From contig CAYRPF010000045.1 in NCBI GenBank assembly GCA_964426185.1, positions 1 to 24,568 on the forward strand: 24,568 nt of DNA. Direction: 5' to 3'. Source of the DNA: an uncultured archaeon (lineage in GTDB: Archaea; Asgardarchaeota; Lokiarchaeia; Sigyniarchaeales; Promethearchaeaceae). Each line of letters begins with the position of its first letter. Position 1 is the first letter of the stretch. The notes beneath the pieces are model-generated. The model was not told the DNA's origin and made no database searches. It was given only the letters and a program-made list of their open reading frames with translations. This document shows, piece by piece, positions 97 through 22,129 of the stretch. The position numbers and the translations under genes were made by a program.

Positions 97-1641
97 TTAA
101 ATTCGCTCAATAGTCATTCCGCCTAAAATTTGAGGTTTGTGTTCATGATAATATGCCACAGCTTCTGCCAACTTTTCCTCGCTATCCGAAAAGATTTGAA
201 ATAATAAGTCACCTTTACTTATTTGTGAACCTATTTTTTTATGAATGATAATTCCTGCTTTTTTCGCGGCTGGACAACCGGCAATTTTTGCGATATGATT
301 GATATAGGCGTTTTCCACTTCGGTTACATATCCATCTTCCTCAGCGAATAAATCGGTATGATACTGTCCAATTTTGATTTCTTCAGGTTTAATTTCTGGA
401 TTACCTCCTTGAGCTTTGATTATTCTTTTCATAGCTTGATAAGCTTGACCTGATTTCAAAATTTCCTTGGCTAACTTTTTACCTTCGCCCAATTTTGCCT
501 TACCAGCCATCTCCAACAGAATTCCCGCCAATTCACAAGATTTATTCATCAAACTGGCTGGTCCTGCGGAATAATCTCGCAATAGTCGTAATCCTTCTTG
601 GGCTTCTAATGCGGGGCCAACAGCATGCCCTATTGGTTGATTAGCGGAAGTTAGCAAACAAACCGTCTTAATTCCCACTTTTTCGGCTACACGTTTAAAA
701 CGCTCAGCAAATTTTCGGCCGTGTTCTGGAGTAGGAAATTTTGTACCTTTACCACATGGTATATCGAGTACAAGTTTTTTAACACCCATACTCATTTTCT
801 TACAGATAATTGAAGCAATCATAATTGGAAATGGATCCATAGATAGAGGTTTTTCCACCCGAATAAATGTATTATCCGCTGGAGCCGAATCTAAGGCGCC
901 ACCCCAAAGAATTCCTGCTTTTTCCTTTTTCAAAATTTCGAGGACATGCTCTTTTGAAAATGCTACTGGAGCCAACACTTCAAAACTATCCGCCGTTCCA
1001 GATGGGCTGGTAATTGCTCTCGTAGAAGTTTTAGGAATAAATAAATCTGCAGCTGCAATAATGGGAACGATAATAAGAGTGACTTTATTACCTGGCACAC
1101 CTCCTGTAGAATGTTTATCAAACACTTCGGGGCCAAAATCTAAAATTTCACCTGAATGAGCCATCGCTAAGGTTAAATTCACTACTTCTTCATCACTTAA
1201 TCCACGAACTTCCAGACCCGTAATGAATGCGGCGATTTCAATGGGAAGAAGGTTACCTTGGGTGGCATCTTTTACGATTTCATCAATTTCTTCTTTTGAA
1301 AGGGTTTTTCCTTTAATTTTTGCCCGAATAAATTCAAAAGATTTCGGTTTAGAGGAGAGCTGCAATTCTACTTCATCAACCTTAGATTGATGAGCTACTT
1401 CTAAGATTTTCTGGTGAACTTCATCATAAAGACCAATTTCTCCATGTTGAATTAACCCTTCTCCAGTTGCGTGATCTACAACCGCGATTATCGGATTGCT
1501 AACGTACCCTTCTATATCTTTGGTAAATATTTTGACACGATCACCTAATTTTGCTCCCATAGCAAAGGCGTCTTCATCATCCATTAGCACGATGGGAACG
1601 GTTCCTGTGGCAATGCCCAATTTCTTTATTTTAAACAACAT
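97..1641 (-). CDS. deoA: AMP phosphorylase (archaeal NMP phosphorylase, thymidine phosphorylase family), paralog 1
   Basis: 514 aa with the extra ~95-aa N-terminal domain typical of AMP phosphorylases. Motifs DKHSTGGVPGNK, PKTSTRAITSPSGTAD, SMDP, DIPCGKGTK, QPIGHAVGPALEA, IIKAQGGNP and GCPAAKKAG. Confidence 0.93.
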   Translation of the reverse strand: MLFKIKKLGIATGTVPIVLMDDEDAFAMGAKLGDRVKIFTKDIEGYVSNPIIAVVDHATGEGLIQHGEIGLYDEVHQKILEVAHQSKVDEVELQLSSKPKSFEFIRAKIKGKTLSKEEIDEIVKDATQGNLLPIEIAAFITGLEVRGLSDEEVVNLTLAMAHSGEILDFGPEVFDKHSTGGVPGNKVTLIIVPIIAAADLFIPKTSTRAITSPSGTADSFEVLAPVAFSKEHVLEILKKEKAGILWGGALDSAPADNTFIRVEKPLSMDPFPIMIASIICKKMSMGVKKLVLDIPCGKGTKFPTPEHGRKFAERFKRVAEKVGIKTVCLLTSANQPIGHAVGPALEAQEGLRLLRDYSAGPASLMNKSCELAGILLEMAGKAKLGEGKKLAKEILKSGQAYQAMKRIIKAQGGNPEIKPEEIKIGQYHTDLFAEEDGYVTEVENAYINHIAKIAGCPAAKKAGIIIHKKIGSQISKGDLLFQIFSDSEEKLAEAVAYYHEHKPQILGGMTIERI

Positions 1642-1661
1642 TGTAATATCACTACTAAAAG

Positions 1662-1683
1662 ATGATGTAAGATCTTAAATCAT
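1662..1683. promoter_or_regulatory. 22-bp near-perfect palindrome in the divergent promoter region (candidate operator)
   Basis: ATGAT-G-TAAGATCTTA-A-ATCAT with one mismatched pair. It overlaps a minus-strand TTTAAG TATA-like box about 33 nt upstream of the ATG at 1641. Confidence 0.4.
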
Positions 1684-1743
1684 TTACGGGCGAAAGGTAT
1701 TATCGAAGATTTTTTTTCAAATTTTACCTTTATTTCTTCCATA

Positions 1744-2727
1744 GTGAAAAGAATTACCGAAATTTCTAATATCTCTGATGGTAGCAGTAATGATTATGTT
1801 GAAGTTCAAACTCCCGGCCGGATTTGTTTATTGGGGGATAAAATTGATTTGGCAGAGTTACCGGTCATTGGATGCGCAGTAAATTGCTTATCTACCATAA
1901 AAATTCGGAAAATTCCTGATTCAACTGTTAGAATTTTTACCAATACTTATCAAAGCGGGTTAGAGTACAAATTGGGCGAAAAAGGAGATTTTAATCATTT
2001 GTTGAAATATTGGTGCGCTATTATTTACAGACTTGGCGATCGAATTGAAGGTTTTGAAGCGATCCTTTCATCAGATATTCCCGTTGGTAGTGGGCTTTCT
2101 TCTTCCGCGGCAATTTCCGTAGGATTAATTAGTGCGTTGAATAAATTATTTGAATTAGGCATGAATAATTATGAAATTGCTGAGTTGGCATATATTACCG
2201 AGCATGATGATTTAGGGATAATGTGTGGGCGTTTAGATCAGTATTCGATTACGTTCGGTGGTGTTTCATTCATTCACACAAACTCACCTCCTAAAGTAAC
2301 TCATGTTCCTATCCAATCTTTACCCATTGTGTTGGCTGATTCAGGAGATTCTCGAAAAGCCCAAGATGTATTAATACGGATAAAAAATAAACTAAAAGCG
2401 GGAGATGCTCAAGTTCATGAATCTTTTCATAAAATTCATCAAGCAGTAATTGAATGCCATCAAGCTCTTCAGCAAAATGATTACAATAAAATTGGAGCTT
2501 TGATGAATTTACAACAAATACAAGAAAAAAAAATGGAAACCACTACTCCAAAAATTGATCTCCTTTGTAGAACCGCTTTAGAACATGGTGCGTTGGGTGC
2601 CAAACAAATCGGCGCGGGTGGCGGAGGATGCATGATTGCATTATGTCCAGAACATTCTGAAGAGGTTAGTAAAGAATTGCAACGAATAGGCGGAAAAGTT
2701 TACAAATTCAATATCTATAATTATTAG
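1744..2727 (+). CDS. GHMP-family kinase (galactokinase/mevalonate kinase-like; substrate uncertain)
   Basis: GTG start. PGRICLLGDKID (motif I), IPVGSGLSSSAA (GHMP ATP loop), CGRLDQ and GAKQIGAGGGGC (motif III). Confidence 0.9.
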   Translation: MKRITEISNISDGSSNDYVEVQTPGRICLLGDKIDLAELPVIGCAVNCLSTIKIRKIPDSTVRIFTNTYQSGLEYKLGEKGDFNHLLKYWCAIIYRLGDRIEGFEAILSSDIPVGSGLSSSAAISVGLISALNKLFELGMNNYEIAELAYITEHDDLGIMCGRLDQYSITFGGVSFIHTNSPPKVTHVPIQSLPIVLADSGDSRKAQDVLIRIKNKLKAGDAQVHESFHKIHQAVIECHQALQQNDYNKIGALMNLQQIQEKKMETTTPKIDLLCRTALEHGALGAKQIGAGGGGCMIALCPEHSEEVSKELQRIGGKVYKFNIYNY

Positions 2728-4268
2728 ATCTTTTCGATTGTCATACTCCCTAATCCAATAGGTGGGTGAGAATTGTAATATTCTACCGCTTTGTTTAATG
2801 AAGCTTGGCTGTTTGCATAAATTCGGAAAACTACATCTCCAGGATGAATTTTTGCCCCAATTTTTTTTTCAATCTCAATACCCGCTTTTTGATCTCCAGG
2901 ACAACCTGCTATTTTTGCGATTTGATTTATGCTTTTATTATTAATAGATGCCACAATACCTCCTTTATCGGCCTTTAATTCCCTCATAAATGATCCAACC
3001 TTAATTTCATTCGGGTTTATATTAGGATTTCCACCTTGAGCTTTGATAATTGCTTGCATTTTTCTTAATGCTCGGCCTGAATTTAGAATTTCTAAAGCCA
3101 ATTCTTTTCCGCGGGATTCAGGGGCCTTACCCGCCATTTCTAAAAGAATTCCTGCAATATCTGTTGCTTTATTTAGTAGGCTTGATGGACCTTTTTCTGG
3201 ATTCCATAATAAACGGAGTGCTTCTCGAGCTTCAAGGGCAGGACCTACTGCATGACCAATAGGTTGATCGGCAGAAGTTAATACGCAAACGCTTTCAATT
3301 CCAACTCTCTTAGCAATTTCTTTGAATCGGAAAGCAAATTTTCGACCTTTTTCTTGTGTAGGAAATTTTGTACCTGCACCAATTGGAATATCCAAAACTA
3401 GTTTTTTTATACCGTTTGCTAACTTTTTCGAGAGAATTGAAGCGATCATCAAATCTAGGGGATCTATATTTAAAATTTTTTGAATTTCGATTAAACCATC
3501 TGCTGCTGGGCTTGAATTCATAGCACCAGCCCAAAAAATTCCTGCATTTTCTTTTTCCAGAATGTTTAGCACTTCTTCCTTTGAAAATATTACATTTGCT
3601 AATACTTCCATACTGTCTGCCGTGCCCGATGGGCTGGTAATTGCTCGTGTCGATGTTTTAGGAATAAATATCCCCGAGGCTGCCAGAATCGGGACGATAA
3701 TTAAAGAGATCTTATTACCAGGAACACCACCAGTTGAATGTTTATCATAGCAATTCGCGCCGAAATCGAAAATTTCTCCCGATTTGGCAAAATTATGAGT
3801 TAAATCTACAACTTCATCATCGTTAAGTCCGCGAATATGAACTCCGATAATAAATGCGGCTAGTTCAACATTTAACAGTTTTTCTTCAGCGCAATCTCTT
3901 ACGATTTCTATGATTTCGTTGGTGGATAATGCTTTTCCTTCAATTTTTTTCTTGATAGCTGCGAAAGATAATGGGTGTGATGCCTTTCGAATTTCAACTA
4001 ATGATGAATTGGTAATTTCTTTAATTTTATCACCGATTTCATCATAGAGACCGATTGTCCCGGGTGAAATTAATTGTTCATTGGTGGCAATATCCACAAT
4101 TGCAATAATTCCTGGCTCATGAAGTATATCAGATTTTTTAACTGCAAAAACTCTAATACGATCTCCAGGTTTAACTCCTAGATTAAATGCATCTATTCGA
4201 TGGATAACTACAATTTTAACTCCGCCCGTAGCCACTCCCAGAATTTTGGTTTTAAATCTCATTATCAT
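2724..4268 (-). CDS. deoA: AMP phosphorylase, paralog 2
   Basis: 514 aa (start may be the second Met at 4262). Motifs DKHSTGGVPGNK, PKTSTRAITSPSGTAD, NIDP, DIPIGAGTK and QPIGHAVGPALEA. Its 3' end overlaps the convergent kinase gene by 4 nt. Confidence 0.93.
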   Translation of the reverse strand: MIMRFKTKILGVATGGVKIVVIHRIDAFNLGVKPGDRIRVFAVKKSDILHEPGIIAIVDIATNEQLISPGTIGLYDEIGDKIKEITNSSLVEIRKASHPLSFAAIKKKIEGKALSTNEIIEIVRDCAEEKLLNVELAAFIIGVHIRGLNDDEVVDLTHNFAKSGEIFDFGANCYDKHSTGGVPGNKISLIIVPILAASGIFIPKTSTRAITSPSGTADSMEVLANVIFSKEEVLNILEKENAGIFWAGAMNSSPAADGLIEIQKILNIDPLDLMIASILSKKLANGIKKLVLDIPIGAGTKFPTQEKGRKFAFRFKEIAKRVGIESVCVLTSADQPIGHAVGPALEAREALRLLWNPEKGPSSLLNKATDIAGILLEMAGKAPESRGKELALEILNSGRALRKMQAIIKAQGGNPNINPNEIKVGSFMRELKADKGGIVASINNKSINQIAKIAGCPGDQKAGIEIEKKIGAKIHPGDVVFRIYANSQASLNKAVEYYNSHPPIGLGSMTIEKI

Positions 4269-8570: not shown

Positions 8571-8972
8571 TCAGTCTTCCATTTCTTCTCGAACTAATTC
8601 GGTTAATGTTCTAAATTTAACTGCATCTGGCAAAGGTCCGATAATTTTCAAATCTCCACTCATATAAGCAGAGGTTGCATCGATTTCACCAGTAAAAACA
8701 CCTGCAGCTGTTTCACCATTCATTTCTAAAGTAACATCTGGCTCTTCTATTTCACCCATGCCATAATCAAATTTGCCATCTTCAATTTTAAACCAGAAAT
8801 TATCCGCATCTGACATGTTAATTTGGAACTTTCGATCCCAATCTTCAACTTCTTCAGCAACATCTTCAGATTCATTACAAGTTTCTTTGAAAACTGCTAA
8901 AAATTCGGGTAAATCATCGATTGAAAAATCACCATCTTCAATCTTTTCAATAAGTTTTTCTTTATCAGCCAT
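8571..8972 (-). CDS. SCP2 sterol/lipid-binding domain protein
   Basis: 133 aa, acidic. Motif PDVTLEM...VFTGEIDATSAYMSGDLKIIG.L..A.KF is typical of SCP2. Confidence 0.88.
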   Translation of the reverse strand: MADKEKLIEKIEDGDFSIDDLPEFLAVFKETCNESEDVAEEVEDWDRKFQINMSDADNFWFKIEDGKFDYGMGEIEEPDVTLEMNGETAAGVFTGEIDATSAYMSGDLKIIGPLPDAVKFRTLTELVREEMED

Positions 8973-12046: not shown

Positions 12047-14566
12047 TTACAAAAATTCCTTAAAGACTTCTTGCAAAATCTCGGTAGCATCATAAAAGGG
12101 AGAAACATCACCCGACCAATTAACTAGCAGATGTCCATACTTATTTCCAAACTGTGTTAGGAAATTTTTCAAAGCCCTACGTACTTGACCGGTTTCTCGA
12201 TCAGCAAATATCGCTCCAAATATCGGTAAACTAGTGCTATATTCCAATATCACTTTTTTATCCCCAGAATCAATGCTTCGGAGTAAATCTGCAGAATTAG
12301 TAACTTCCTTTACGAAACTGGTAATGGCGCTAAACATTCCAGAAACAAGAGATGGCATATAATTTTTCTTTAATTCTTGTTTTTCAAGATCATCTTCTGT
12401 TGATAATTCATTTTCTGGTTCTTTTGTTTCGGTAATCTGATAATAAAATAAATTTCTTCCATCTTTATAGAGCAAGTAGATTGAGTCAATTTGTGCTCTT
12501 TCAATAATGCAAGAAAATTCAGGAATCCACAAAAATAATAGATGCTGGTTTAATTGTGAAATTAACCACGCTTTAAATTTCGGATCTGTCAAAAGTGTCT
12601 GGGGAATAGATTTCAGCGGATAATCATTTTGTTGTTGTAATTGGTAACGAATTTCTTCTGCTTGAGGTTCATTAAAATCTAGATCCTGCAAATCTACATC
12701 CGATTTTCGCTCAATCGATGCAAGAGGATGTGTTTTAAAAAAAACCTGAAGATCTGTAACATTTTCGGGGTTTACAAGCGAATAGGTAACCCTTTCAACA
12801 TAGTTTCGCCCTTTATCAATTGATTTAACCTTAAAATTACGATTTATGAAGTAGAAAAGAAATCCCCACAAAATAAACAAGCAAAAAGGATTGAACAAGT
12901 AAAATGGGATGGTTAATGCCCTCAAAATCATGTTTCCAGAAAAGCTAGCTGTTAAAAATCCCGTTCGGACAGTATAAAAGGTAAAGTGATTTTGGGACAA
13001 ATAAACCGGGACACCTGTTATCCAACTCGTTTCTTCTGTAAAAGATAGTGGAATGATTAAGTCAGAGTTTAGAAGAATCGAAAATAGAATTGTGAAAATT
13101 AGCAAAGTCCCACCATAGATTCCAATAACTGTGGAAATATGCTGTTTTGTTCGCATAGCAAGATTGAAAAAGAAAGCCAGAACGATTACTCGAAAAACAA
13201 GTTCAATTGAATGAAGAGTAACAGAAATTTCGGATATCAGAGTTTCTGAATAACTTGGAGAAGCAGCTGCTGCTGATATTTGAGTGATATCAGTCCCTGT
13301 GGGTAGAAATAAACTACCGATTAGATTAAAGATTAGAAAAATGGTAACGCTAATAAAAGTGGCAATGAAGCCATATAATATAATAATTGAGAAATGTTTT
13401 AGAAGTGGTCGTGAAGTTGAAAGCTGAATTGATTCAATTGTTTGCTCATTTTCAAAATTTTCAGGTAAATTCTTTTGCAGTGTATTTTCAATTGTAGGAA
13501 GAGAAGCAGATTCATCTGCTGGGTTCGTCGAGTTCGCTGAAGTTTCTGAAGTTTCCGAAAGATTCTCAGAATCCAGTTGCTGTTGACTTCTTCTTCTGAA
13601 ATGTTTTCTAAAACGTTTTCGAGAAGCCCAGAACTTCCATGATTTGCGGTAATTGATAATTTTTAGCAATATTAGAATGCTAATTGGTTCAAAAATACGC
13701 ATAAATAAAATGAATGTAAAGGCAGCCATTAAAAAATAGCCAAATATATAAATAAATAGTAAAAGACTATCGGTTTGTTGTATTACAAAAAGTATGATAC
13801 TTAAAATTGCAATTGGGGTTCCCACTTCTTTTAAACTAGTAAAAAATCGCGCCTCAATTTGCTCTCCAATAAATTTCCCCCGAAATGCCAGGCGAGACGC
13901 TTTAATAAGTTGATAGCCATAAAGAAAGGTGGCAATGTACACAAAGAAGATTTCAATCAACATCCCAATAGCTGTGCTGCTTTTATTCAGATTTACCGGT
14001 TCTAAACCTGAAATATCAAGAATTACTGCTAATAAGTAAATTGCAATAGGCATTACAATTAAAAATGCTTTAAACATCTCTTTTTCCTTGGACCAATCGT
14101 TTTTACGCAATGCTTTCTTAATCATTTCTTTAGGTGAAGCGATATATTCATAATGAATTTCTTGAAAAAGGTCGATTTCGCCATTTTTCTCTTCTTTTCG
14201 AATTCTCAAATAAAGTATAAGCAGGGAAATAAAGGGCGAAATCACGAATATTAAGGGTAATAAAACAAATGGATATTGAGCATAGGTTGAGATCAAACTT
14301 AAAGAACGTAAGATTAAGTAAATAGGCACTAAGCTTGAAGTTTTAGAAGATGATTCATCTTCTGATAAAGGTTTTACATCGAATTGTAAAAGTGCAGGTA
14401 AAATCCAATAAACTGCGAAAAAGAAGCAAAGTCCATAATATAGTCTTAGGTAAAAAGCGCGCTTTGCAGTTTTTCGTTTAAAAAATGGAATTGGGATGGC
14501 AAAAATTAGTAATGGAATCAGATTCAGTAAGAGACTAAAGATCACATCCTCTATCGCAATAACCAT
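12047..14566 (-). CDS. Polytopic membrane protein (about a dozen TM helices) with a C-terminal longin/roadblock-like domain
   Basis: Two blocks of hydrophobic helices separated by a basic and S/T/E/N-rich linker. The last ~150 aa (IDSIYLLYKDGRNLF...LVSGMFSAITSFVKEV...LRSIDSGDKKVILEY...L..F...F..KY...L.NWSGDVSPF) match the pattern of Asgard longin-like domains. Confidence 0.75.
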   Translation of the reverse strand: MVIAIEDVIFSLLLNLIPLLIFAIPIPFFKRKTAKRAFYLRLYYGLCFFFAVYWILPALLQFDVKPLSEDESSSKTSSLVPIYLILRSLSLISTYAQYPFVLLPLIFVISPFISLLILYLRIRKEEKNGEIDLFQEIHYEYIASPKEMIKKALRKNDWSKEKEMFKAFLIVMPIAIYLLAVILDISGLEPVNLNKSSTAIGMLIEIFFVYIATFLYGYQLIKASRLAFRGKFIGEQIEARFFTSLKEVGTPIAILSIILFVIQQTDSLLLFIYIFGYFLMAAFTFILFMRIFEPISILILLKIINYRKSWKFWASRKRFRKHFRRRSQQQLDSENLSETSETSANSTNPADESASLPTIENTLQKNLPENFENEQTIESIQLSTSRPLLKHFSIIILYGFIATFISVTIFLIFNLIGSLFLPTGTDITQISAAAASPSYSETLISEISVTLHSIELVFRVIVLAFFFNLAMRTKQHISTVIGIYGGTLLIFTILFSILLNSDLIIPLSFTEETSWITGVPVYLSQNHFTFYTVRTGFLTASFSGNMILRALTIPFYLFNPFCLFILWGFLFYFINRNFKVKSIDKGRNYVERVTYSLVNPENVTDLQVFFKTHPLASIERKSDVDLQDLDFNEPQAEEIRYQLQQQNDYPLKSIPQTLLTDPKFKAWLISQLNQHLLFLWIPEFSCIIERAQIDSIYLLYKDGRNLFYYQITETKEPENELSTEDDLEKQELKKNYMPSLVSGMFSAITSFVKEVTNSADLLRSIDSGDKKVILEYSTSLPIFGAIFADRETGQVRRALKNFLTQFGNKYGHLLVNWSGDVSPFYDATEILQEVFKEFL

Positions 14567-14722
14567 ATTATGATAGTATTAGAAGTCTGAATTAATTTTC
14601 TTTTGCTATTTTAAGTTATGATTCTTTGTAAGAATGCTTACTTTTAAATAGGAGTTCCCTAAAATATTTTCAATATATGCAATTTTGTAGTTAACTCACA
14701 AATTATGGGTAAATTGTGACAA

Positions 14723-14730
14723 AAGGAGGA
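14723..14730 (+). promoter_or_regulatory. Shine-Dalgarno sequence
   Basis: AAGGAGGA, 7 nt before the in-frame ATC at 14738. Confidence 0.6.
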
Positions 14731-14737
14731 TTAAAAG

Positions 14738-15784
14738 ATCTCTAAAGAAAATAAGAATCGAGTTGGAATACCCCGTGCGTTATATTACTATATCTATAAA
14801 CCTATGTGGGTGAAATTTTTTGAAAAAATTGGGGCTCAAGTGATAATTTCACCTAAAACGAATAATACCATCAAAACATTAGGAGTGCGTTTTGCCCCAG
14901 ATGAAGATTGTTACAACAGTAAGCTTTATTATGGTCATGTTATTTCCTTAAAAAAGAAAGTAGATTATCTTTTTATCCCCAGGTTAGGCTCCGATCATCC
15001 CGTTCATGTGGGTTGCCCGAAATTCATCTCGTTGGCTGAAGTTATTCATTCCATGTATCCGGAATTACCAGAATTAATTAACCCTTATTATTCTCAAGCA
15101 AAGGCAAATCATGGGAAATTACGACTATTAATGATTGCTTTTCAAGTAGGTTGGAAATTTACTAAAAATCCCCTTAAAATTCTTCTGGCGCTTCGATTGG
15201 CCGTTCGTTCTCAAAGAATTTTCCGAAAGAAAACACACTTTTCAATAGAAAAACTACATGATTGGGAACAAGGAAAAATCTCCGAAATTTCAACATTATC
15301 TGATTTGAACTTTAAAATTGAGAAGAAACCTTTGAAAGTGGCGTTAGCCGCGCATAGATATGTGATTCATGATGATTTTGCTTCTCTAAATATTTATAAT
15401 AAATTGAGAGAGCGCGGAATTGAAATAATTACATCCGAACAAATGCCACGCGAAATCATTCAAGATGAAATGGCTAAGCTGGATTACAACTTCTATTTTG
15501 AGTATGAACGGGAAATTCTCGGCACTATACTCTATTTTTTGCGACATAAAACCGTTGATGGTATTATTCAAATTAATACTTTTTCCTGCGGACCGGACAG
15601 TATTGCGGGAGAAGTTGCCTCTCAATATTCCAAACGCTTAAAATCTGTTACATTATTGCAGCTTACATTTGATGAATTAACCGGAGAAGCTGGTTTGAAT
15701 ACCCGATTAGAGGCTTTTGTTGATATGCTAGAAAGGAAGCGAAAAAAAAAATGCCCATCACATTTCCCCACTTTGGTAGCCTGA
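14738..15784 (+). CDS. DUF2229 / acyl-CoA dehydratase activase-related Fe-S protein (PlsA C-terminal-like)
   Basis: The conserved VGIPRAL motif lies upstream of the first ATG (14804), so the start is extended to ATC 14738. Motifs EDCYNSKLYYGHV, DYLFIPR, GCPKF, FSCGPD and FDELTGEAGLNTRLEAFVD. Confidence 0.82.
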   Translation: MSKENKNRVGIPRALYYYIYKPMWVKFFEKIGAQVIISPKTNNTIKTLGVRFAPDEDCYNSKLYYGHVISLKKKVDYLFIPRLGSDHPVHVGCPKFISLAEVIHSMYPELPELINPYYSQAKANHGKLRLLMIAFQVGWKFTKNPLKILLALRLAVRSQRIFRKKTHFSIEKLHDWEQGKISEISTLSDLNFKIEKKPLKVALAAHRYVIHDDFASLNIYNKLRERGIEIITSEQMPREIIQDEMAKLDYNFYFEYEREILGTILYFLRHKTVDGIIQINTFSCGPDSIAGEVASQYSKRLKSVTLLQLTFDELTGEAGLNTRLEAFVDMLERKRKKKCPSHFPTLVA

Positions 15785-16899
15785 CCTATGTATTTGAATC
15801 ATTAGTTAAAGAATTAGGTCGGACAGATGTAATATTACCCAAACCTCCTAGTCGTAAGACGGCTCAGTTAGGAGCACGATATGGCCCAGAATACATTTGT
15901 ACCCCTTTCAAAATGACTTTAGGTACCTTTATAGAATCCTTAGAGAAGGGAGCTGATGAATTAGCGATAGGGGGGTGCCAAGCCTACTGCCGATTTGGAT
16001 ATTACTGGCCGGTGCAGAAATTAATTTTGGAAGATTTAGGCTACAAATTTAGGTTTATACATATCGATTATGACCACCCTTTGGAAATTTTACGAACTTT
16101 GAAGAAGGAAATCAGTAATAATTATTCCTATGCGCAGACTTTGCGGGCCGCCCGAATCACTTGGTTGAAAAATCGGCTCACTGATTTGGTAGATGAATTA
16201 CTCTATAAATACCGGGCTTTAGAAGTGGAAAAAGGGCTTGCAGAGCGGGTAGCTCATAAATGTTATCGGAAAATCGTAGCTTTAGAGGGAGCGAAAGCCA
16301 TTCGGAAATACCAAAAAATACTTCCGGATATTTTCGTAAGTGAAATCGAAATTAGGAATGAATCAAATCCACTCCGCGTGATGATTAATGGCGAAATATA
16401 CGTAGTGCTTGAACCTTCTTTAAATGTTAATGTTCATAAGCGGATGAATGAACTAGGGGTTGTTACGAAAAGCCCAACCACACTTCGCCGTTTTTATGAT
16501 TTGGGACAGAAATGGAATCCATTCAAATTGATGGATTATAAAATCGCCGATAAAATGGCGAAACCCTACATTGCCCATCGCTGTGGAGGTGAAGCTCAAG
16601 AAGCCATCGGAGAGACGATTATTTACAAAAAGCAAGGATTTGACGGAGTAATACATTTATATCCCTTCACGTGTTTGCCTCATATTGCCTCTAAAAATAT
16701 CTTACCGCAGATCAGCAGGTTGTATGACATTCCCGTGCTGTCGTTGGTGGTGGATGAACAAACAGGTGAAGCTGGTTTTCAAACCAGATTGGAAGCTTTT
16801 GTAGATTTGCTTGCTCGTAAAAGAAAATATCCCTCCAGGAAAGGGAAAGATCTTATGCCTGAAACAATGCAAAATAATCCGGTTTCTTTGGTGAAATAA
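15751..16899 (+). CDS. 2-hydroxyacyl-CoA dehydratase/reductase-like Fe-S subunit (PlsR-like)
   Basis: G..YGPEYICTPFK.TLG, CRFGYY, GEIYV, CGGE, YPFTCLPH and DEQTGEAGFQTRLEAFVD. Confidence 0.82.
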   Translation: MPITFPHFGSLTYVFESLVKELGRTDVILPKPPSRKTAQLGARYGPEYICTPFKMTLGTFIESLEKGADELAIGGCQAYCRFGYYWPVQKLILEDLGYKFRFIHIDYDHPLEILRTLKKEISNNYSYAQTLRAARITWLKNRLTDLVDELLYKYRALEVEKGLAERVAHKCYRKIVALEGAKAIRKYQKILPDIFVSEIEIRNESNPLRVMINGEIYVVLEPSLNVNVHKRMNELGVVTKSPTTLRRFYDLGQKWNPFKLMDYKIADKMAKPYIAHRCGGEAQEAIGETIIYKKQGFDGVIHLYPFTCLPHIASKNILPQISRLYDIPVLSLVVDEQTGEAGFQTRLEAFVDLLARKRKYPSRKGKDLMPETMQNNPVSLVK

Positions 16900-16900
16900 T

Positions 16901-17938
16901 ATGATTAAAGTTGAAAATGGAAAAAAATATTATCTTGGTGTTGATGTCGGTTCAATAAGCACCAACGTTGCAGTTATCGATGAATCTAGAAAAGTAATTG
17001 AATCAGTTTATATCCGAACTGAAGGAAAGCCCATTCAAGCGGTACAAAATGGTATTCGCATAATGCGGAATAAATTAGGGGTAGATCTTCCAATCCACGG
17101 AGCTGGTGCTACTGGTTCTGCGCGACAACTAACCGGAGTGCTGATCGGAGCTGACATTGTGAAAAACGAGATTACCGCACATGCTCTGGCTGCCATACAG
17201 TATCGACCGGATGTTCAAACTGTTCTTGAAATAGGAGGCCAAGATAGCAAAATTATCATCCTACGAGATGGTGTTGCAATCGATTTTGCTATGAATACTG
17301 TTTGTGCGGCTGGAACCGGGAGTTTTTTGGACCAGCAAGCTCGCCGCATAAAAATTCCCATCGAAAGTTTCGGAAATTTCGCTTTAAAGTCAAATAATCC
17401 CGTTTCAATTGCAGGCCGATGCACAGTTTTTGCTGAATCCGACATGATCCACAATCAACAGCTAGGTTATCCTGAGAAAGATATTATTCGCGGCTTGTGT
17501 GAGGCTTTAGTGCGGAATTATCTCAATAACGTAGGAAAAGGGAAAGAAATACGGCCTCCTATCATGTTTCAAGGGGGTGTTGCGGCGAATAAAGGAATTC
17601 GGAAGGCGTTTGCGGAAAGTTTAGGCTATGAAATCATTGTTCCCGAGCATTATGATGTGATGGGTGCCATTGGAGCGGCTATTCTGGCGCAAGAAGAGAT
17701 GGAGAAGGAACCACGCCCATCTAATTTTCTGGATTGGGACATTCCCCAATTGCAATTCCGAACAACTGGTTTTGAATGCGCGGACTGTCCAAATATGTGT
17801 GAGATTGTAGAAATAATCAAAAATGAAAAATTGATTGCACGCTGGGGAAGCAAATGTGGTAAGTGGGATGATTTAACCGTGGAACGGCGGACGCATATGG
17901 AGAAAAAGGACGATTTTAGCCAAATTTTGGCAGAATAA
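16901..17938 (+). CDS. ATP-dependent acyl-CoA dehydratase activase (BcrAD/BadFG/HgdC family) with a C-terminal Cys cluster
   Basis: YLGVDVGSIST, ATGSAR, NEITAHA, EIGGQDSK, MNTVCAAGTGSFL, CTVFAESD, FQGGVAAN and MGAIGAA. Extension CADCPNMC...GSKC. Confidence 0.92.
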   Translation: MIKVENGKKYYLGVDVGSISTNVAVIDESRKVIESVYIRTEGKPIQAVQNGIRIMRNKLGVDLPIHGAGATGSARQLTGVLIGADIVKNEITAHALAAIQYRPDVQTVLEIGGQDSKIIILRDGVAIDFAMNTVCAAGTGSFLDQQARRIKIPIESFGNFALKSNNPVSIAGRCTVFAESDMIHNQQLGYPEKDIIRGLCEALVRNYLNNVGKGKEIRPPIMFQGGVAANKGIRKAFAESLGYEIIVPEHYDVMGAIGAAILAQEEMEKEPRPSNFLDWDIPQLQFRTTGFECADCPNMCEIVEIIKNEKLIARWGSKCGKWDDLTVERRTHMEKKDDFSQILAE

Positions 17939-18871: not shown

Positions 18872-20956
18872 ATGACACTCAAAGAGATAAAATCTCACCC
18901 TATTCTCACACCTCCATCTCGAAAGGAGGTTAATTTTACATTTAACGGAAAAAGCCTTGTCGGCTATGAAAATATGATGATATCTTCTGTTCTTTTTCTC
19001 CACGGAATAAAGATTTTCGGGCATCATCCTAAAGATAATTCACCGCAAGGTATTTTCTGTGCTAATGGTCAATGTGCGCAATGCACTGTATTGGTTGATG
19101 AAAAACCCATGAAATCTTGCATGACTCCTCTTAAAGAGGGAATGCGGATAGAAAGCTGCGAAGGTCTTCCAAGTCTACCTGAAGATGATGTATCTATAAC
19201 TATTGGAAATCCAAAGGTGTTAGAAAAGGAAGTTCTAATAATAGGCGCTGGTCCTGCTGGTTTATCTGCCGCCAAAGTTTTAGGTGGAAAAGGAATCGAA
19301 GTTTTATTAATTGATGATAAAGATCGAACCGGTGGCAAGTTGGTACTGCAAACTCATAAATTTTTCGGTTCCCAGAAAGATGTTTATGCAGGAAAACGTG
19401 GAATTGAAATCGGAGAAATTCTAGGTAATGAAGTCAGACAACTGAAAAATGTTGAAATATGGCTAAATTCAACCGCTTTAGCAGTATTTCGGGATGGTTT
19501 GATTGGGATTTTACGTGATAACCACAAATATATATTGGTTCGCCCTAAACGTTTGCTTGTGGCTACTGGTGCCCGCGAAAAGATGTTAATTTTTCCAGGC
19601 GATACTCTTCCGGGTGTTTACGGTGCGGGCGCATTTCAAACCCTTATTAATCGCGATTTAGTTAAAGCATCCGAGCGAATTTTCATCGTTGGCGGGGGAA
19701 ATGTGGGTTTAATAGCGGGATATCACGCCATTCAAGCTGGGATTGAAGTTGTGGGTTTAATTGAAGCATTACCTCGGTGCGGTGGCTATGCTGTGCACGA
19801 AACTAAACTAAGACGATTGGGTGTGCCTATCTATACCCACCATACCATTGTTTCAGCCAACGGTAATGATCAAGTGGAGTCTATTACTATAGCACAGATA
19901 GATGACAATTGGAATACCATTCCCGGAACCGAAAAGACCTTTGAATGTGATACTATTTTGATTGCAGTGGGTTTAAATCCGGTCAATGAGTTTTATCAAA
20001 AAGCCGTTCATTATAATATTCCAGCATGGGTTGCAGGAGATGCACAAGAGATTGCTGAAGCTTCAGCAGCTATATTTACCGGAAAAATTGAAGCCGTCAA
20101 AATTCTTAAAAATATGGGTATGGGCTATCCTGAAAATATTAAAGAATTGGAACGAAAGGCTGAGATTATGAAAGCCCGACCTCCCCTGCCTAAAAATCGA
20201 GAAATTCCGGATAAATTTGAAGGTATTTTCCCTGTATTCCATTGTAATCAAGAAATTCCATGTAATCCATGTACAACAGTTTGTCCTCAAGGACAAATAG
20301 AAACAGAAACAGAAATGATTACATCCTTGCCTTATTTTAAAGGAGAAAAGAATTGCACCGGATGCGGGCGCTGTGTAGCGGTTTGTCCCGGTTTGGCAAT
20401 TACTTTGGTGGATTTCCGTAAAAACCCAGAATTGCCTCGAGTAACTCTTCCTTACGAGATTGCCACGGAAGTGCTTAAAAAGGGAGAAATTGTAACTATT
20501 ATGGATGATTCTGGAGTTTTAGGGGAATATGAAGTAAAAAGAGCACGTGTTCTCCCAGAATATCCACATACTCAATTAATAACGATTGAACTTCCGAAAG
20601 AAATTGCTAAACAAGCCATTGGTGTGCGAACTTGGCGAGAACATAAAGTTGAACCTGTAGAAATGTATAATAAGGCACCTTTACCAGATAGTGCCATAGT
20701 ATGTCGCTGTGAGCGGGTTACTGCCGGCGAAATTAGAAAATGGATTCGGGCTGGGGTAACAGACATGAATCAGTTGAAGGCAATAACTCGTGCAGGAATG
20801 GGCGCGTGTGGTGGTAAGACTTGTACCTCTTTGATAGAGCGCTTGTTTCGAGATGAAGGATTATCTACCGATAAAATCACAGCGGCGACAAAACGCCCCC
20901 TTTTCGTAGAAGTTCCTTTGGGATATTTCGCACAAGGAGAACCTAAGGAGGAATAA
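18872..20956 (+). CDS. Sarcosine oxidase alpha / dye-linked L-proline dehydrogenase electron-transfer subunit: [2Fe-2S] + FAD/NAD oxidoreductase + 2[4Fe-4S] + BFD-like domains
   Basis: GIFCANGQCAQC...SC; IIGAGPAG, ATGARE, VGGGNVG and AGDA; CNPCTTVCP and CTGCGRCVAVCP; C-terminal CRCE...GMGACGGKTC. Confidence 0.88.
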   Translation: MTLKEIKSHPILTPPSRKEVNFTFNGKSLVGYENMMISSVLFLHGIKIFGHHPKDNSPQGIFCANGQCAQCTVLVDEKPMKSCMTPLKEGMRIESCEGLPSLPEDDVSITIGNPKVLEKEVLIIGAGPAGLSAAKVLGGKGIEVLLIDDKDRTGGKLVLQTHKFFGSQKDVYAGKRGIEIGEILGNEVRQLKNVEIWLNSTALAVFRDGLIGILRDNHKYILVRPKRLLVATGAREKMLIFPGDTLPGVYGAGAFQTLINRDLVKASERIFIVGGGNVGLIAGYHAIQAGIEVVGLIEALPRCGGYAVHETKLRRLGVPIYTHHTIVSANGNDQVESITIAQIDDNWNTIPGTEKTFECDTILIAVGLNPVNEFYQKAVHYNIPAWVAGDAQEIAEASAAIFTGKIEAVKILKNMGMGYPENIKELERKAEIMKARPPLPKNREIPDKFEGIFPVFHCNQEIPCNPCTTVCPQGQIETETEMITSLPYFKGEKNCTGCGRCVAVCPGLAITLVDFRKNPELPRVTLPYEIATEVLKKGEIVTIMDDSGVLGEYEVKRARVLPEYPHTQLITIELPKEIAKQAIGVRTWREHKVEPVEMYNKAPLPDSAIVCRCERVTAGEIRKWIRAGVTDMNQLKAITRAGMGACGGKTCTSLIERLFRDEGLSTDKITAATKRPLFVEVPLGYFAQGEPKEE
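20945..20952 (+). promoter_or_regulatory. Shine-Dalgarno sequence for the beta subunit
   Basis: AAGGAGGA, 7 nt before ATG 20960. Confidence 0.65.
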
Positions 20957-20959
20957 AAA

Positions 20960-22129
20960 ATGGCTGAAAAATATGATGTAATTGTTATTGGAGCGGGAAG
21001 TGTGGGGATTCCAATTGCTCAATATTGCGCTCGTGATGGATTAAAGGTTTTAGTCTTAGAAAAAGCACCTTCGGTATCACAAGGTGATAATAAACATGCA
21101 ATTGGTGGAATACGCGCCACTCACACTCAGCGGGCAAAAATTTTCTTAGGCTTGAGAAGTATTGAGATTTTTTCCACTTGGAAAGATAAACACGGTGATG
21201 ATATTGGATGGGTTGAAGGAGGTTACTGTTATGTAGCTTATACCCCCGAACACGCAGAATTATTTAAAAACAACATCAATCTTCAAAAAAAATTAGGTTT
21301 AAACATAGATTTTCATACTCCTGAGAAAATCCGCGAATTAGTGCCTGGAATAAATTTAGATGGTTTACTGGGAGGTACTTTTAGTCCAAATGACGGTAGC
21401 GCTTCACCTCTTTTAGCTGCAAATGCATTTTATCAAGATGCTCTTTCTCATGAAGCCGAATTTCATTTTAATGAAAAAGTCGTTTCTCTCGAGAAAGATG
21501 GGAACCAAATTACAAGTATTAAAACGAATAGAGGAAAATATGAAGCTAAATGGGTTATAAATGCCGCTGGTGGTTATGCTAAGGAAGTTGGGCAAATGAT
21601 TGGGTTAGATATACCTGTTTCACCCACAAGTCACGAAGCAGGAATTACTGAACCGGTGAAACATTTTCTTAAACCGATGGTAGTCGATATTCGACCATGT
21701 GAAGATCCTACTTTTGGAAATTCAAAAAACTTCTATTTCTATCAGAATAATGAAGGTCAGTTGATTTTCTGTATCACTCCTGATCCCCCAATTTATGGGC
21801 ACGATCGGGAAGAAACGAGTCAATTCTTACCTCAAATTGCTAAACGTATGGTTGATTTAGTACCACGCTTGAAAAACCTTAAAGTGCGACGAACTTGGCG
21901 GGGGCTTTATCCCGATACACCCGACGGTGCGCCTATTATTGGTAAAGTAAAAGAAATAGAAAATTTAATCAATGCAGTGGGTATGTGTGGCCAAGGTTTT
22001 ATGCTCGGTCCAGGGATTGGAGAAGTAATTTCCCGATTAATCCGTGATGTTCTTACAGAGGATGATAAAATCATACTCGAAGAACTTTCGCTTTATCGGG
22101 ATTTCGGGCAAGTAGAAATGTTGAAATAA
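20960..22129 (+). CDS. FAD-dependent oxidoreductase, DAO family (sarcosine oxidase beta / L-proline dehydrogenase catalytic subunit)
   Basis: DVIVIGAGSVG, VINAAGGYA, R.W.GLY..TPDG.PIIG and GMCGQGFMLGPGIG. Operonic with the upstream gene (3-nt gap). Confidence 0.9.
   Translation: MAEKYDVIVIGAGSVGIPIAQYCARDGLKVLVLEKAPSVSQGDNKHAIGGIRATHTQRAKIFLGLRSIEIFSTWKDKHGDDIGWVEGGYCYVAYTPEHAELFKNNINLQKKLGLNIDFHTPEKIRELVPGINLDGLLGGTFSPNDGSASPLLAANAFYQDALSHEAEFHFNEKVVSLEKDGNQITSIKTNRGKYEAKWVINAAGGYAKEVGQMIGLDIPVSPTSHEAGITEPVKHFLKPMVVDIRPCEDPTFGNSKNFYFYQNNEGQLIFCITPDPPIYGHDREETSQFLPQIAKRMVDLVPRLKNLKVRRTWRGLYPDTPDGAPIIGKVKEIENLINAVGMCGQGFMLGPGIGEVISRLIRDVLTEDDKIILEELSLYRDFGQVEMLK

Follow-up and report, generated by a model that had tools for sequence, protein, structure and literature searches.

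This work concerns a three-gene operon, encoding two related reductase subunits (here Red1 and Red2) and an activase, in a 24,568-nucleotide (nt) stretch of DNA from an uncultured archaeon of the Lokiarchaeia. This whole stretch, hereafter the window, is contig C45 of a 3.26-Mb genome that is 92% complete. The original prediction, made from the letters alone, had taken the operon for a split form of the lipid-ester reductases PlsA/PlsR and Ger in a probable Asgard archaeon. The Asgard origin was supported: the best matches carry the names Promethearchaeota, Lokiarchaeum or Heimdallarchaeota, and the window also encodes an Arf-family GTPase and Hef. The tight coupling of the genes was likewise found as described. 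They are co-oriented, Red1 and Red2 overlap by 34 nt (Red1 ends at 15784, Red2 begins at 15751), and a gap of 1 nt separates Red2 from the activase gene (16899 and 16901). The features of the operon are given below (aa, amino acids).

14643..14651, + strand: TATA-box-like TTTTAAATA, predicted promoter element, read off the sequence
14725..14729, + strand: GGAGG, predicted ribosome-binding site 8 nt upstream of the ATC
14738..15784, + strand: Red1, DUF2229 subunit, 348 aa, probable ATC start (Pfam DUF2229)
14909-14911, 15014-15016 and 15587-15589, + strand: Red1 Cys triad C58, C93 and C284 (50-sequence alignment)
15751..16899, + strand: Red2, Red1 paralogue and PlsR counterpart, 382 aa (Pfam HGD-D and DUF2229 N-terminus)
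15898-15900, 15988-15990 and 16672-16674, + strand: conserved Red2 Cys C50, C80 and C308 (comparison of relatives)
16901..17938, + strand: activase, single ASKHA ATPase domain, 345 aa (BcrAD_BadFG, TIGR00241)
17303-17305 and 17420-17422, + strand: predicted cluster-bridging Cys135 and Cys174 of the activase, both aligned to HadI Cys
17777..17857, + strand: CxxCxNxC...GxxC module at the activase C-terminus, residues 293-319 (regular-expression scan)

The predicted composition, with a DUF2229 subunit, its paralogue and a BcrAD/BadFG activase, was confirmed by Pfam searches and by comparison of Red1 with Red2. Red1 matched DUF2229 at 114 bits and showed a weak HGD-D tail (19.5 bits against a cut-off of 28.4), and Red2 matched DUF2229 at its N-terminus (29.2 bits) and HGD-D in its C-terminal half only (29.1 bits). 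The two subunits are paralogues (28% identity, E 3e-21). In an alignment of 50 relatives, the Red1 columns C58, K62, C93, Y208, C284, D312 and R323 were invariant. Of the Red2 regions compared, at least 19 of the 20 split ones and all 8 fused ones retained C50, C80 and C308. The three Cys of each subunit match the superfamily pattern of a [4Fe-4S] cluster with one open iron.

The AlphaFold2 model of Red1 had a predicted local distance difference test score (pLDDT) of 93. Its top Foldseek matches all belonged to the BCR/HAD superfamily, namely DCCP (7YYL), HadC (3O3M_B), BzdO (8S02_B) and MbdO (9GAI_B), at template-modelling (TM) scores of ~0.5 and 10-15% identity. When Red1 and Red2 were each searched on their own against the PDB, no match appeared at E up to 10, HgdAB/HadBC included, and the alignment of the Red1 family profile to DCCP and HadC was confined to their last 70 residues. 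A pair of related catalytic subunits with an HgdAB/HadBC-type fold and three Cys each agrees with membership of this superfamily.

The activase scored 158 bits against BcrAD_BadFG (PF01869) and 179.7 bits against TIGR00241 (cut-off 125.4), and it matched HadI (4EHT), MbdQ (9GAI) and HgdC (1HUX) at E ~1e-36 (1.7e-36 for MbdQ). An ASKHA-type activase with two cluster-bridging Cys is again as expected of the BCR/HAD superfamily. The predicted Cys-rich extension is present as the tail CADCPNMC...GSKC. The solved activases (243-276 aa) stop short of this module. Besides the window activase, the scan found it in the split paralogue of that activase and in 29 of the 30 fused PlsA/Ger-type proteins, and the fused protein of the same genome carries it after its second activase domain. 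The module marks the DUF2229 branch.

The start of Red1 is unusual in that position 14738 holds ATC, not ATG, GTG or TTG. The frame is closed upstream by TAA at 14732-14734, and there is no ATG, GTG or TTG between this stop and the VGIPRAL motif of Red1. The first ATG of the frame, at 14804, would remove this family-conserved motif, which lies at least 2 residues past the start in every homologue. Since the frame is closed at 14732 and no ordinary start precedes VGIPRAL, Red1 most likely begins at the ATC, 8 nt after the GGAGG. The ATC may be a sequencing error for ATG. The database gene call for Red1 is 338 aa long, with an apparent start at ATA 14768. The TATA-box-like element sits within the 171-nt divergent intergenic region 5' of Red1. 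A run of ten A lies at 15741-15750, directly 5' of the Red2 start codon in the region of the Red1-Red2 overlap. This junction may be prone to frameshift or fusion; relatives include Red1-Red2 fusions of ~720 aa.

Relation to PlsA/PlsR, Ger and other members of the superfamily

The domain set of PlsA/PlsR and Ger (BcrAD_BadFG, DUF2229 and an HGD-D-like part), which had been assigned to the operon, was recovered by Pfam on separate genes. The likeness to PlsA/PlsR of Clostridium perfringens (CPE1194/1195) and Ger of Thermotoga maritima (Tmari_0479) extends to the three-Cys triads in both reductase parts, the Lys/Tyr/Asp/Arg columns of Red1, the CxxCxNxC...GxxC module after the activase and, presumably, an ATP-driven ketyl chemistry. 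The separation of the two reductase parts has a precedent in the validated PlsA/PlsR of C. perfringens (PMC12838417). In Ger, two activase domains are followed by DUF2229 and then by HGD-D-like pieces, and the tandem activase-activase-DUF2229 (BBD) fusion is conserved in all ether-lipid producers (PMC13159169). The window operon, however, lacks this fusion. As the original prediction had stated, one free-standing activase gene takes the place of two fused domains, and the domain search found a single domain in it. The order of the parts is Red1-Red2-activase, whereas in PlsA/Ger it is activase-activase-Red1(-Red2).

An exhaustive search of 1.84 billion representatives gave 2376 relatives. The best 150 of these 2376 were split proteins (roughly 300-400 aa, with a few shorter fragments) or Red1-Red2 fusions of ~700 aa; no 1400-aa protein was among these best 150 representatives, and the 1400-aa fused type appeared only at 22-28% identity. 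When the split and fused Red1 profiles were aligned with hhalign (probability 100, E 2e-66, 22% identity), their invariant Cys, Lys, Tyr, Asp and Arg columns coincided. Three-gene clusters similar to the present one, anticipated in anaerobic Firmicutes, were found in Clostridia and other anaerobes.

Phylogenetic trees were built with FastTree (220 rows) and IQ-TREE (66 rows). The fused clade in these trees is defined by architecture, and the validated sequences of C. perfringens, T. maritima and E. faecalis were not among the rows; the control genomes of T. maritima and L. lactis did give PF09989 matches. The fused proteins were monophyletic with supports of 100 and 99 in the two trees, and the window Red1 was excluded from them. 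The window-type clade had supports of 98 and 95, and a third clade (support 99) was formed by a second split type, found on contig C6 of the same genome and described below. With Red2 as the root, the window clade was sister to all others (71 and 91), and the fused clade was nested among split forms. Red1 falls inside the wider DUF2229 family and outside the fused PlsA/Ger-type clade.

These facts place the window operon in the DUF2229 branch that holds PlsA/PlsR and Ger. Because the window clade lies outside the well-supported fused clade, as defined by architecture, and because Red1 is 22.7% identical to the fused protein of the same genome, the operon is regarded as a deep-branching paralogue of PlsA/PlsR and Ger, not as their orthologue.

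The window clade consists of Asgard sequences and two proteins from metagenome-assembled genomes (MAGs) labelled Zixibacteria and Bathyarchaeia. This composition speaks against the horizontal acquisition from Firmicutes that had been considered. We rejected such an origin on the grounds that all but these two members are from Asgard archaea and that the 'Zixibacteria' locus has the same downstream genes as a Heimdall locus.

Other members of the superfamily resemble the operon in more general terms. The three-component logic, the activase fold, the cluster Cys and the catalytic fold are common to the window operon and to HadBC with HadI (3O3M, 4EHT) and HgdAB/HgdC. The operon had been held to differ from these classical dehydratases, and it does. 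Neither subunit has a full-length HGD-D match above the cut-off, Red1 has a DUF2229 N-terminal half and no detectable sequence match to HadBC/HgdAB beyond the last 70 residues, the activase has the additional Cys module that HadI and HgdC lack, and no CoA-transferase or dehydrogenase adjoins the operon. DCCP with DCCP-R (6ENO, 7YYL) also relies on an ATP-dependent reductase partner. DCCP is, however, a homodimer with a six-Cys [Fe8S9] double-cubane cluster, whereas Red1 and Red2 would form a heterodimer and have three conserved Cys each, so that they do not fit the double-cubane type. Class I benzoyl-CoA reductases (BzdNOPQ 8S02, MbdONPQ 9GAI) belong to the same superfamily, but their ATPase subunits are of two different kinds and their substrates are aromatic CoA thioesters; the window region has no aromatic-degradation genes nearby.

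Companion DUF2229 systems in the Lokiarchaeia

The genome of the window holds three DUF2229 systems. Besides the window operon, there are a fused gene and a second split operon.

L008:7630-11994 (G000 contig C31), - strand: fused 1454-aa activase-activase-DUF2229-HGD-D protein, with the Ger/PlsA architecture (domain search)
L009:6913-12307 (G000 contig C6), - strand: five-gene operon of a PlsC-type acyltransferase, a second acyltransferase, Red1, Red2 and activase

The fused gene is flanked by a class-III aminotransferase gene and a methyltransferase gene. In the C6 operon, the split Red1-Red2-activase genes lie directly downstream of two PlsC-type acyltransferase genes, and their layout, with a single activase, is that of the window operon. 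In sequence, the window Red1 has 31.5% identity with its C6 counterpart and 22.7% with the Red1 domain of the fused protein; the two split Red2 proteins share 31% identity, and the window activase is 51% identical to the C6 activase and 36% to the fused one. The context of the C6-type operon was examined in 12 genomes, ten of them from the window's own genus and its sister family, the others being Promethearchaeum syntrophicum and Lokiarchaeum ossiferum (L149, L150). The operon followed a PlsC-type acyltransferase gene in 12 of 12. One or two such genes precede the C6 type; they never precede the window type.

All three types are present in both cultured Lokiarchaeia, P. syntrophicum and L. 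ossiferum, the latter with three fused 1400-aa-type genes. Since each of these species retains all three, their coexistence argues against redundancy. The acyltransferase-linked C6 operon is a better lipid candidate than the window operon, and both it and the fused gene are better candidates for ether-lipid synthesis.

The distribution of the systems was analyzed across 121 genomes sampled from the phylum. Of these, 18 had the C6 type (43-100% identity), in families f1, f2 and f16, as against the window's genome and family f5 for the window type. The fused type was found in 10, with distant forms (~33% identity) in 2 more; 9 genomes of the sample besides the window's own have orthologues of the fused gene, at 54-63% identity. 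Ger homologues in Lokiarchaeota, including P. syntrophicum, and in Heimdallarchaeota have already been published (PMC13159169). Our literature search found no published description of three parallel systems in the Lokiarchaeia or of the early branching of the split clade that paralogue rooting gives.

Some genomes of the sister family have a second, duplicated split module beside the acyltransferase-linked one (L046, G109:C38; L052, G104:C104). The Red1 of these duplicated modules lies within long frames (599-846 aa) that hold an in-frame TGA. Activase-domain proteins of ~980 aa adjoin the split module in L046 (G109) and, in a separate genome, in L048 (G008).

Neighbouring genes and lipid genes

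No conserved lipid gene was found beside the operon across 8 orthologous loci. In L. ossiferum the neighbours code for a short-chain dehydrogenase, transcribed divergently, and for an acyltransferase of the 2-oxoacid-dehydrogenase type. The orthologous operon of P. syntrophicum has an SCP2 gene directly upstream and MoxR/VWA genes downstream. Loci of the Heimdall type have downstream genes for a pyridine-nucleotide-disulfide oxidoreductase and an amidohydrolase, or else unrelated neighbours. The bacterial split modules are likewise self-contained. The neighbouring genes referred to in this section are listed here; positions are those of the window unless a locus is named.

8571-8972, - strand: SCP2 lipid-carrier gene, the only strong one of the genome, 5.8 kb upstream of the operon
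L012:8361-8771: SCP2 gene of P. syntrophicum, directly upstream of the orthologous operon
12047-14566, - strand: 839-aa protein divergent from the operon, with no Pfam or NCBIfam match
18872-22129, + strand: oxidoreductase gene pair resembling heterotetrameric sarcosine oxidase / archaeal proline dehydrogenase alpha and beta subunits, 0.9 kb downstream
97-4268: two paralogous 514-aa AMP-phosphorylase-like genes (- strand) flanking a GHMP-kinase gene (+ strand)

The genes of glycerolipid synthesis, PlsC, PlsY and glycerol-3-phosphate dehydrogenase, had been proposed as a check. The genome of the window has three PlsC-type acyltransferases and a strong match to a GpsA-type glycerol-3-phosphate dehydrogenase; no PlsY match and no match to geranylgeranylglyceryl-phosphate synthase (GGGPS, PcrB) were found in this 92%-complete genome. 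Lokiarchaeia make isoprenoid ether lipids, and the canonical GGGPS was reported to be missing from the complete P. syntrophicum genome (PMC7015854). No PlsC-type gene was found in five f5 genomes carrying the window type; four of these (G003, G045, G097, G115) were searched for PlsY and had two or three strong PlsY-type genes each. A glycerolipid acyltransferase family is accordingly present in every window-type genome tested. Its presence would permit, without showing, a lipid substrate. Bacterial-type glycerol acyltransferases thus differ between Asgard lineages, being of the PlsC type in the window's genome and of the PlsY type in f5.

For the 839-aa upstream protein, the ESM Atlas gave only an Asgard-specific hypothetical cluster (score 0.84). 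The 694-aa alpha-like protein of the downstream pair combines 2Fe-2S, Pyr_redox_2, 4Fe-4S dicluster and BFD-like domains in one chain, and its 389-aa partner is a DAO-family flavoprotein. We rejected the membership of this pair in the operon, as a gene on the opposite strand intervenes. A gene of the AMP-phosphorylase-like family is also found near the orthologous operon in L. ossiferum (L010:1-331).

Mechanism and substrate

We propose that the three genes encode one self-contained BCR/HAD radical enzyme of the DUF2229 branch with a substrate of its own, a statement to which, taken as a whole, we give an even chance. Its parts differ in strength. From the likeness to characterised relatives, the mechanism class, in which ATP drives the injection of electrons into a heterodimer with two clusters, is very probably right. 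The layout of the genes, their domains, conserved ligands and fold, and the place of the operon in the trees and among the genomes are results of the analysis. In the scheme that we infer, which covers oligomeric state, clusters, electron path and substrate class, an activase homodimer would hold one [4Fe-4S] cluster between its subunits, on Cys135 and Cys174 of each. Ferredoxin or flavodoxin would reduce the activase, and ATP hydrolysis would then drive an electron of very low potential from it into the Red1-Red2 heterodimer. Red1 and Red2 would each bind a [4Fe-4S] cluster through three Cys, one iron being left free for the substrate. The electron would turn a bound carbonyl into a ketyl radical and so open the way to a reduction or elimination that would otherwise be very difficult. 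The best guess for the substrate is the ester carbonyl of a hydrophobic, lipid-like molecule rather than a CoA thioester.

Since the operon is kept alongside the fused gene and the acyltransferase-linked split operon, it most likely acts on its own, separate substrate. The original prediction of an ATP-driven reductase for acyl-glycerol lipids fared well as to the mechanism class; the lipid part survives only as the best single guess, and we regard it as tentative, at somewhat less than an even chance. The canonical PlsA/Ger reaction takes up a part of this chance; what is left over, apart from a small share for a CoA-thioester dehydratase, falls to some other substrate. We lean to a lipid ester because the DUF2229 enzymes characterised so far all have glycerolipid esters as their substrates (PMC13159169; PMC12838417) and the paralogue is in an operon with acyltransferases, and because the context of a CoA pathway is missing at the loci and SCP2 lipid-carrier genes recur nearby. 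Several observations weigh against this proposal. The neighbours of the window-type operon differ in each lineage examined, and the SCP2 genes of the window and of P. syntrophicum are 21% identical, so that their link with the operon may be due to chance. The window type was found in 7 of the 121 genomes, that is, in the window's genome and in 6 of the 9 of family f5, while neither the genome of the same genus (87% complete) nor any of 16 from the sister family gave a match to it. Under paralogue rooting (71, 91) the window clade lies outside both lipid-linked groups, and therefore parsimony would carry no lipid function to it. P. syntrophicum, which carries an orthologue, gave only phytane and biphytanes after ether cleavage (PMC7015854).

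It is worth noting that there are other possible interpretations of the operon. One is an ATP-driven reductase for a non-lipid substrate, similar to DCCP, which we regard as possible though doubtful. Red1 has its best match, by structure and by profile, in DCCP (7YYL, 6ENO), the module stands alone with variable neighbours in archaea, Clostridia, Omnitrophota and Chloroflexota, and the window clade branches apart from the lipid-linked clades. The match to DCCP is weak, however (TM ~0.5, 12-14% identity), the three conserved Cys per subunit fall short of the six needed for a double-cubane cluster, and the invariant residues are those of the PlsA/Ger-type domains. It is unlikely that the operon is a functional split PlsA/PlsR or Ger that converts the sn-1 ester of acyl-glycerolipids into a vinyl or alkyl ether and so contributes to mixed Asgard membranes. 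The shared domain set, Red1/Red2 ligands and activase Cys module, the precedent of a divided C. perfringens PlsA/PlsR (PMC12838417), and the three PlsC-type acyltransferases and strong GpsA-type match of the genome would all accord with such a function. The same genome, however, already contains both a fused PlsA/Ger-type protein and the acyltransferase-linked split operon; Red1 has no more than 23% identity with the fused type and stands outside its clade, a conserved adjoining lipid gene is missing at the loci examined, and non-isoprenoid chains were not reported for P. syntrophicum after ether cleavage (PMC7015854). The operon therefore does not appear to be the split PlsA/Ger of this organism, as had been supposed.

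Cultured Asgard archaea are known to live by amino-acid fermentation. A 2-hydroxyacyl-CoA dehydratase serving such a fermentation, or some other CoA-thioester enzyme in that role, would belong to the same superfamily, and the activase is close to HadI and HgdC (E ~1e-36). The NCBI name of the subunits is 'acyl-CoA dehydratase activase-related'; within 6 kb in P. syntrophicum there are genes for an acyl-CoA synthetase, an aldehyde:ferredoxin oxidoreductase and an Fe-alcohol dehydrogenase, and the proline-dehydrogenase-like pair lies 0.9 kb downstream of the window operon. That pair is cut off by the opposite-strand gene, however, and a CoA-transferase or 2-hydroxyacid dehydrogenase adjoins the module in 0 of 11 loci (the window and 10 related loci). 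The HGD-D score of Red1 (19.5 bits) is below the cut-off of 28.4, the single-sequence PDB searches gave no HgdAB/HadBC match, and the profile aligned over the last 70 residues only. A literature search for Asgard archaea together with 2-hydroxyglutaryl-CoA dehydratase found no paper. We thus consider a fermentative CoA-thioester enzyme quite improbable, and retain as our preferred reading the DUF2229 radical enzyme with a substrate of its own.

No known group is more closely related to the eukaryotic host lineage than the Asgard archaea, which bears on the question of how ether membranes of the archaeal kind were replaced by ester membranes. In the Lokiarchaeia, and in both cultured species among them, three PlsA/Ger-like systems are maintained side by side, of which published work mentions only 'Ger homologs'; the window operon is the least understood of the three. 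It is a long shot that one of these systems, possibly the window type, which is archaea-specific and branches deep, converts an ester-linked glycerolipid, acyl or isoprenoyl, into an ether by reduction. If true, this would mean an ester-first route to ether lipids in Asgard archaea, one that crosses the lipid divide. As an early-branching group of DUF2229 proteins under paralogue rooting, the window clade may help to explain the origin of the fused bacterial enzymes.

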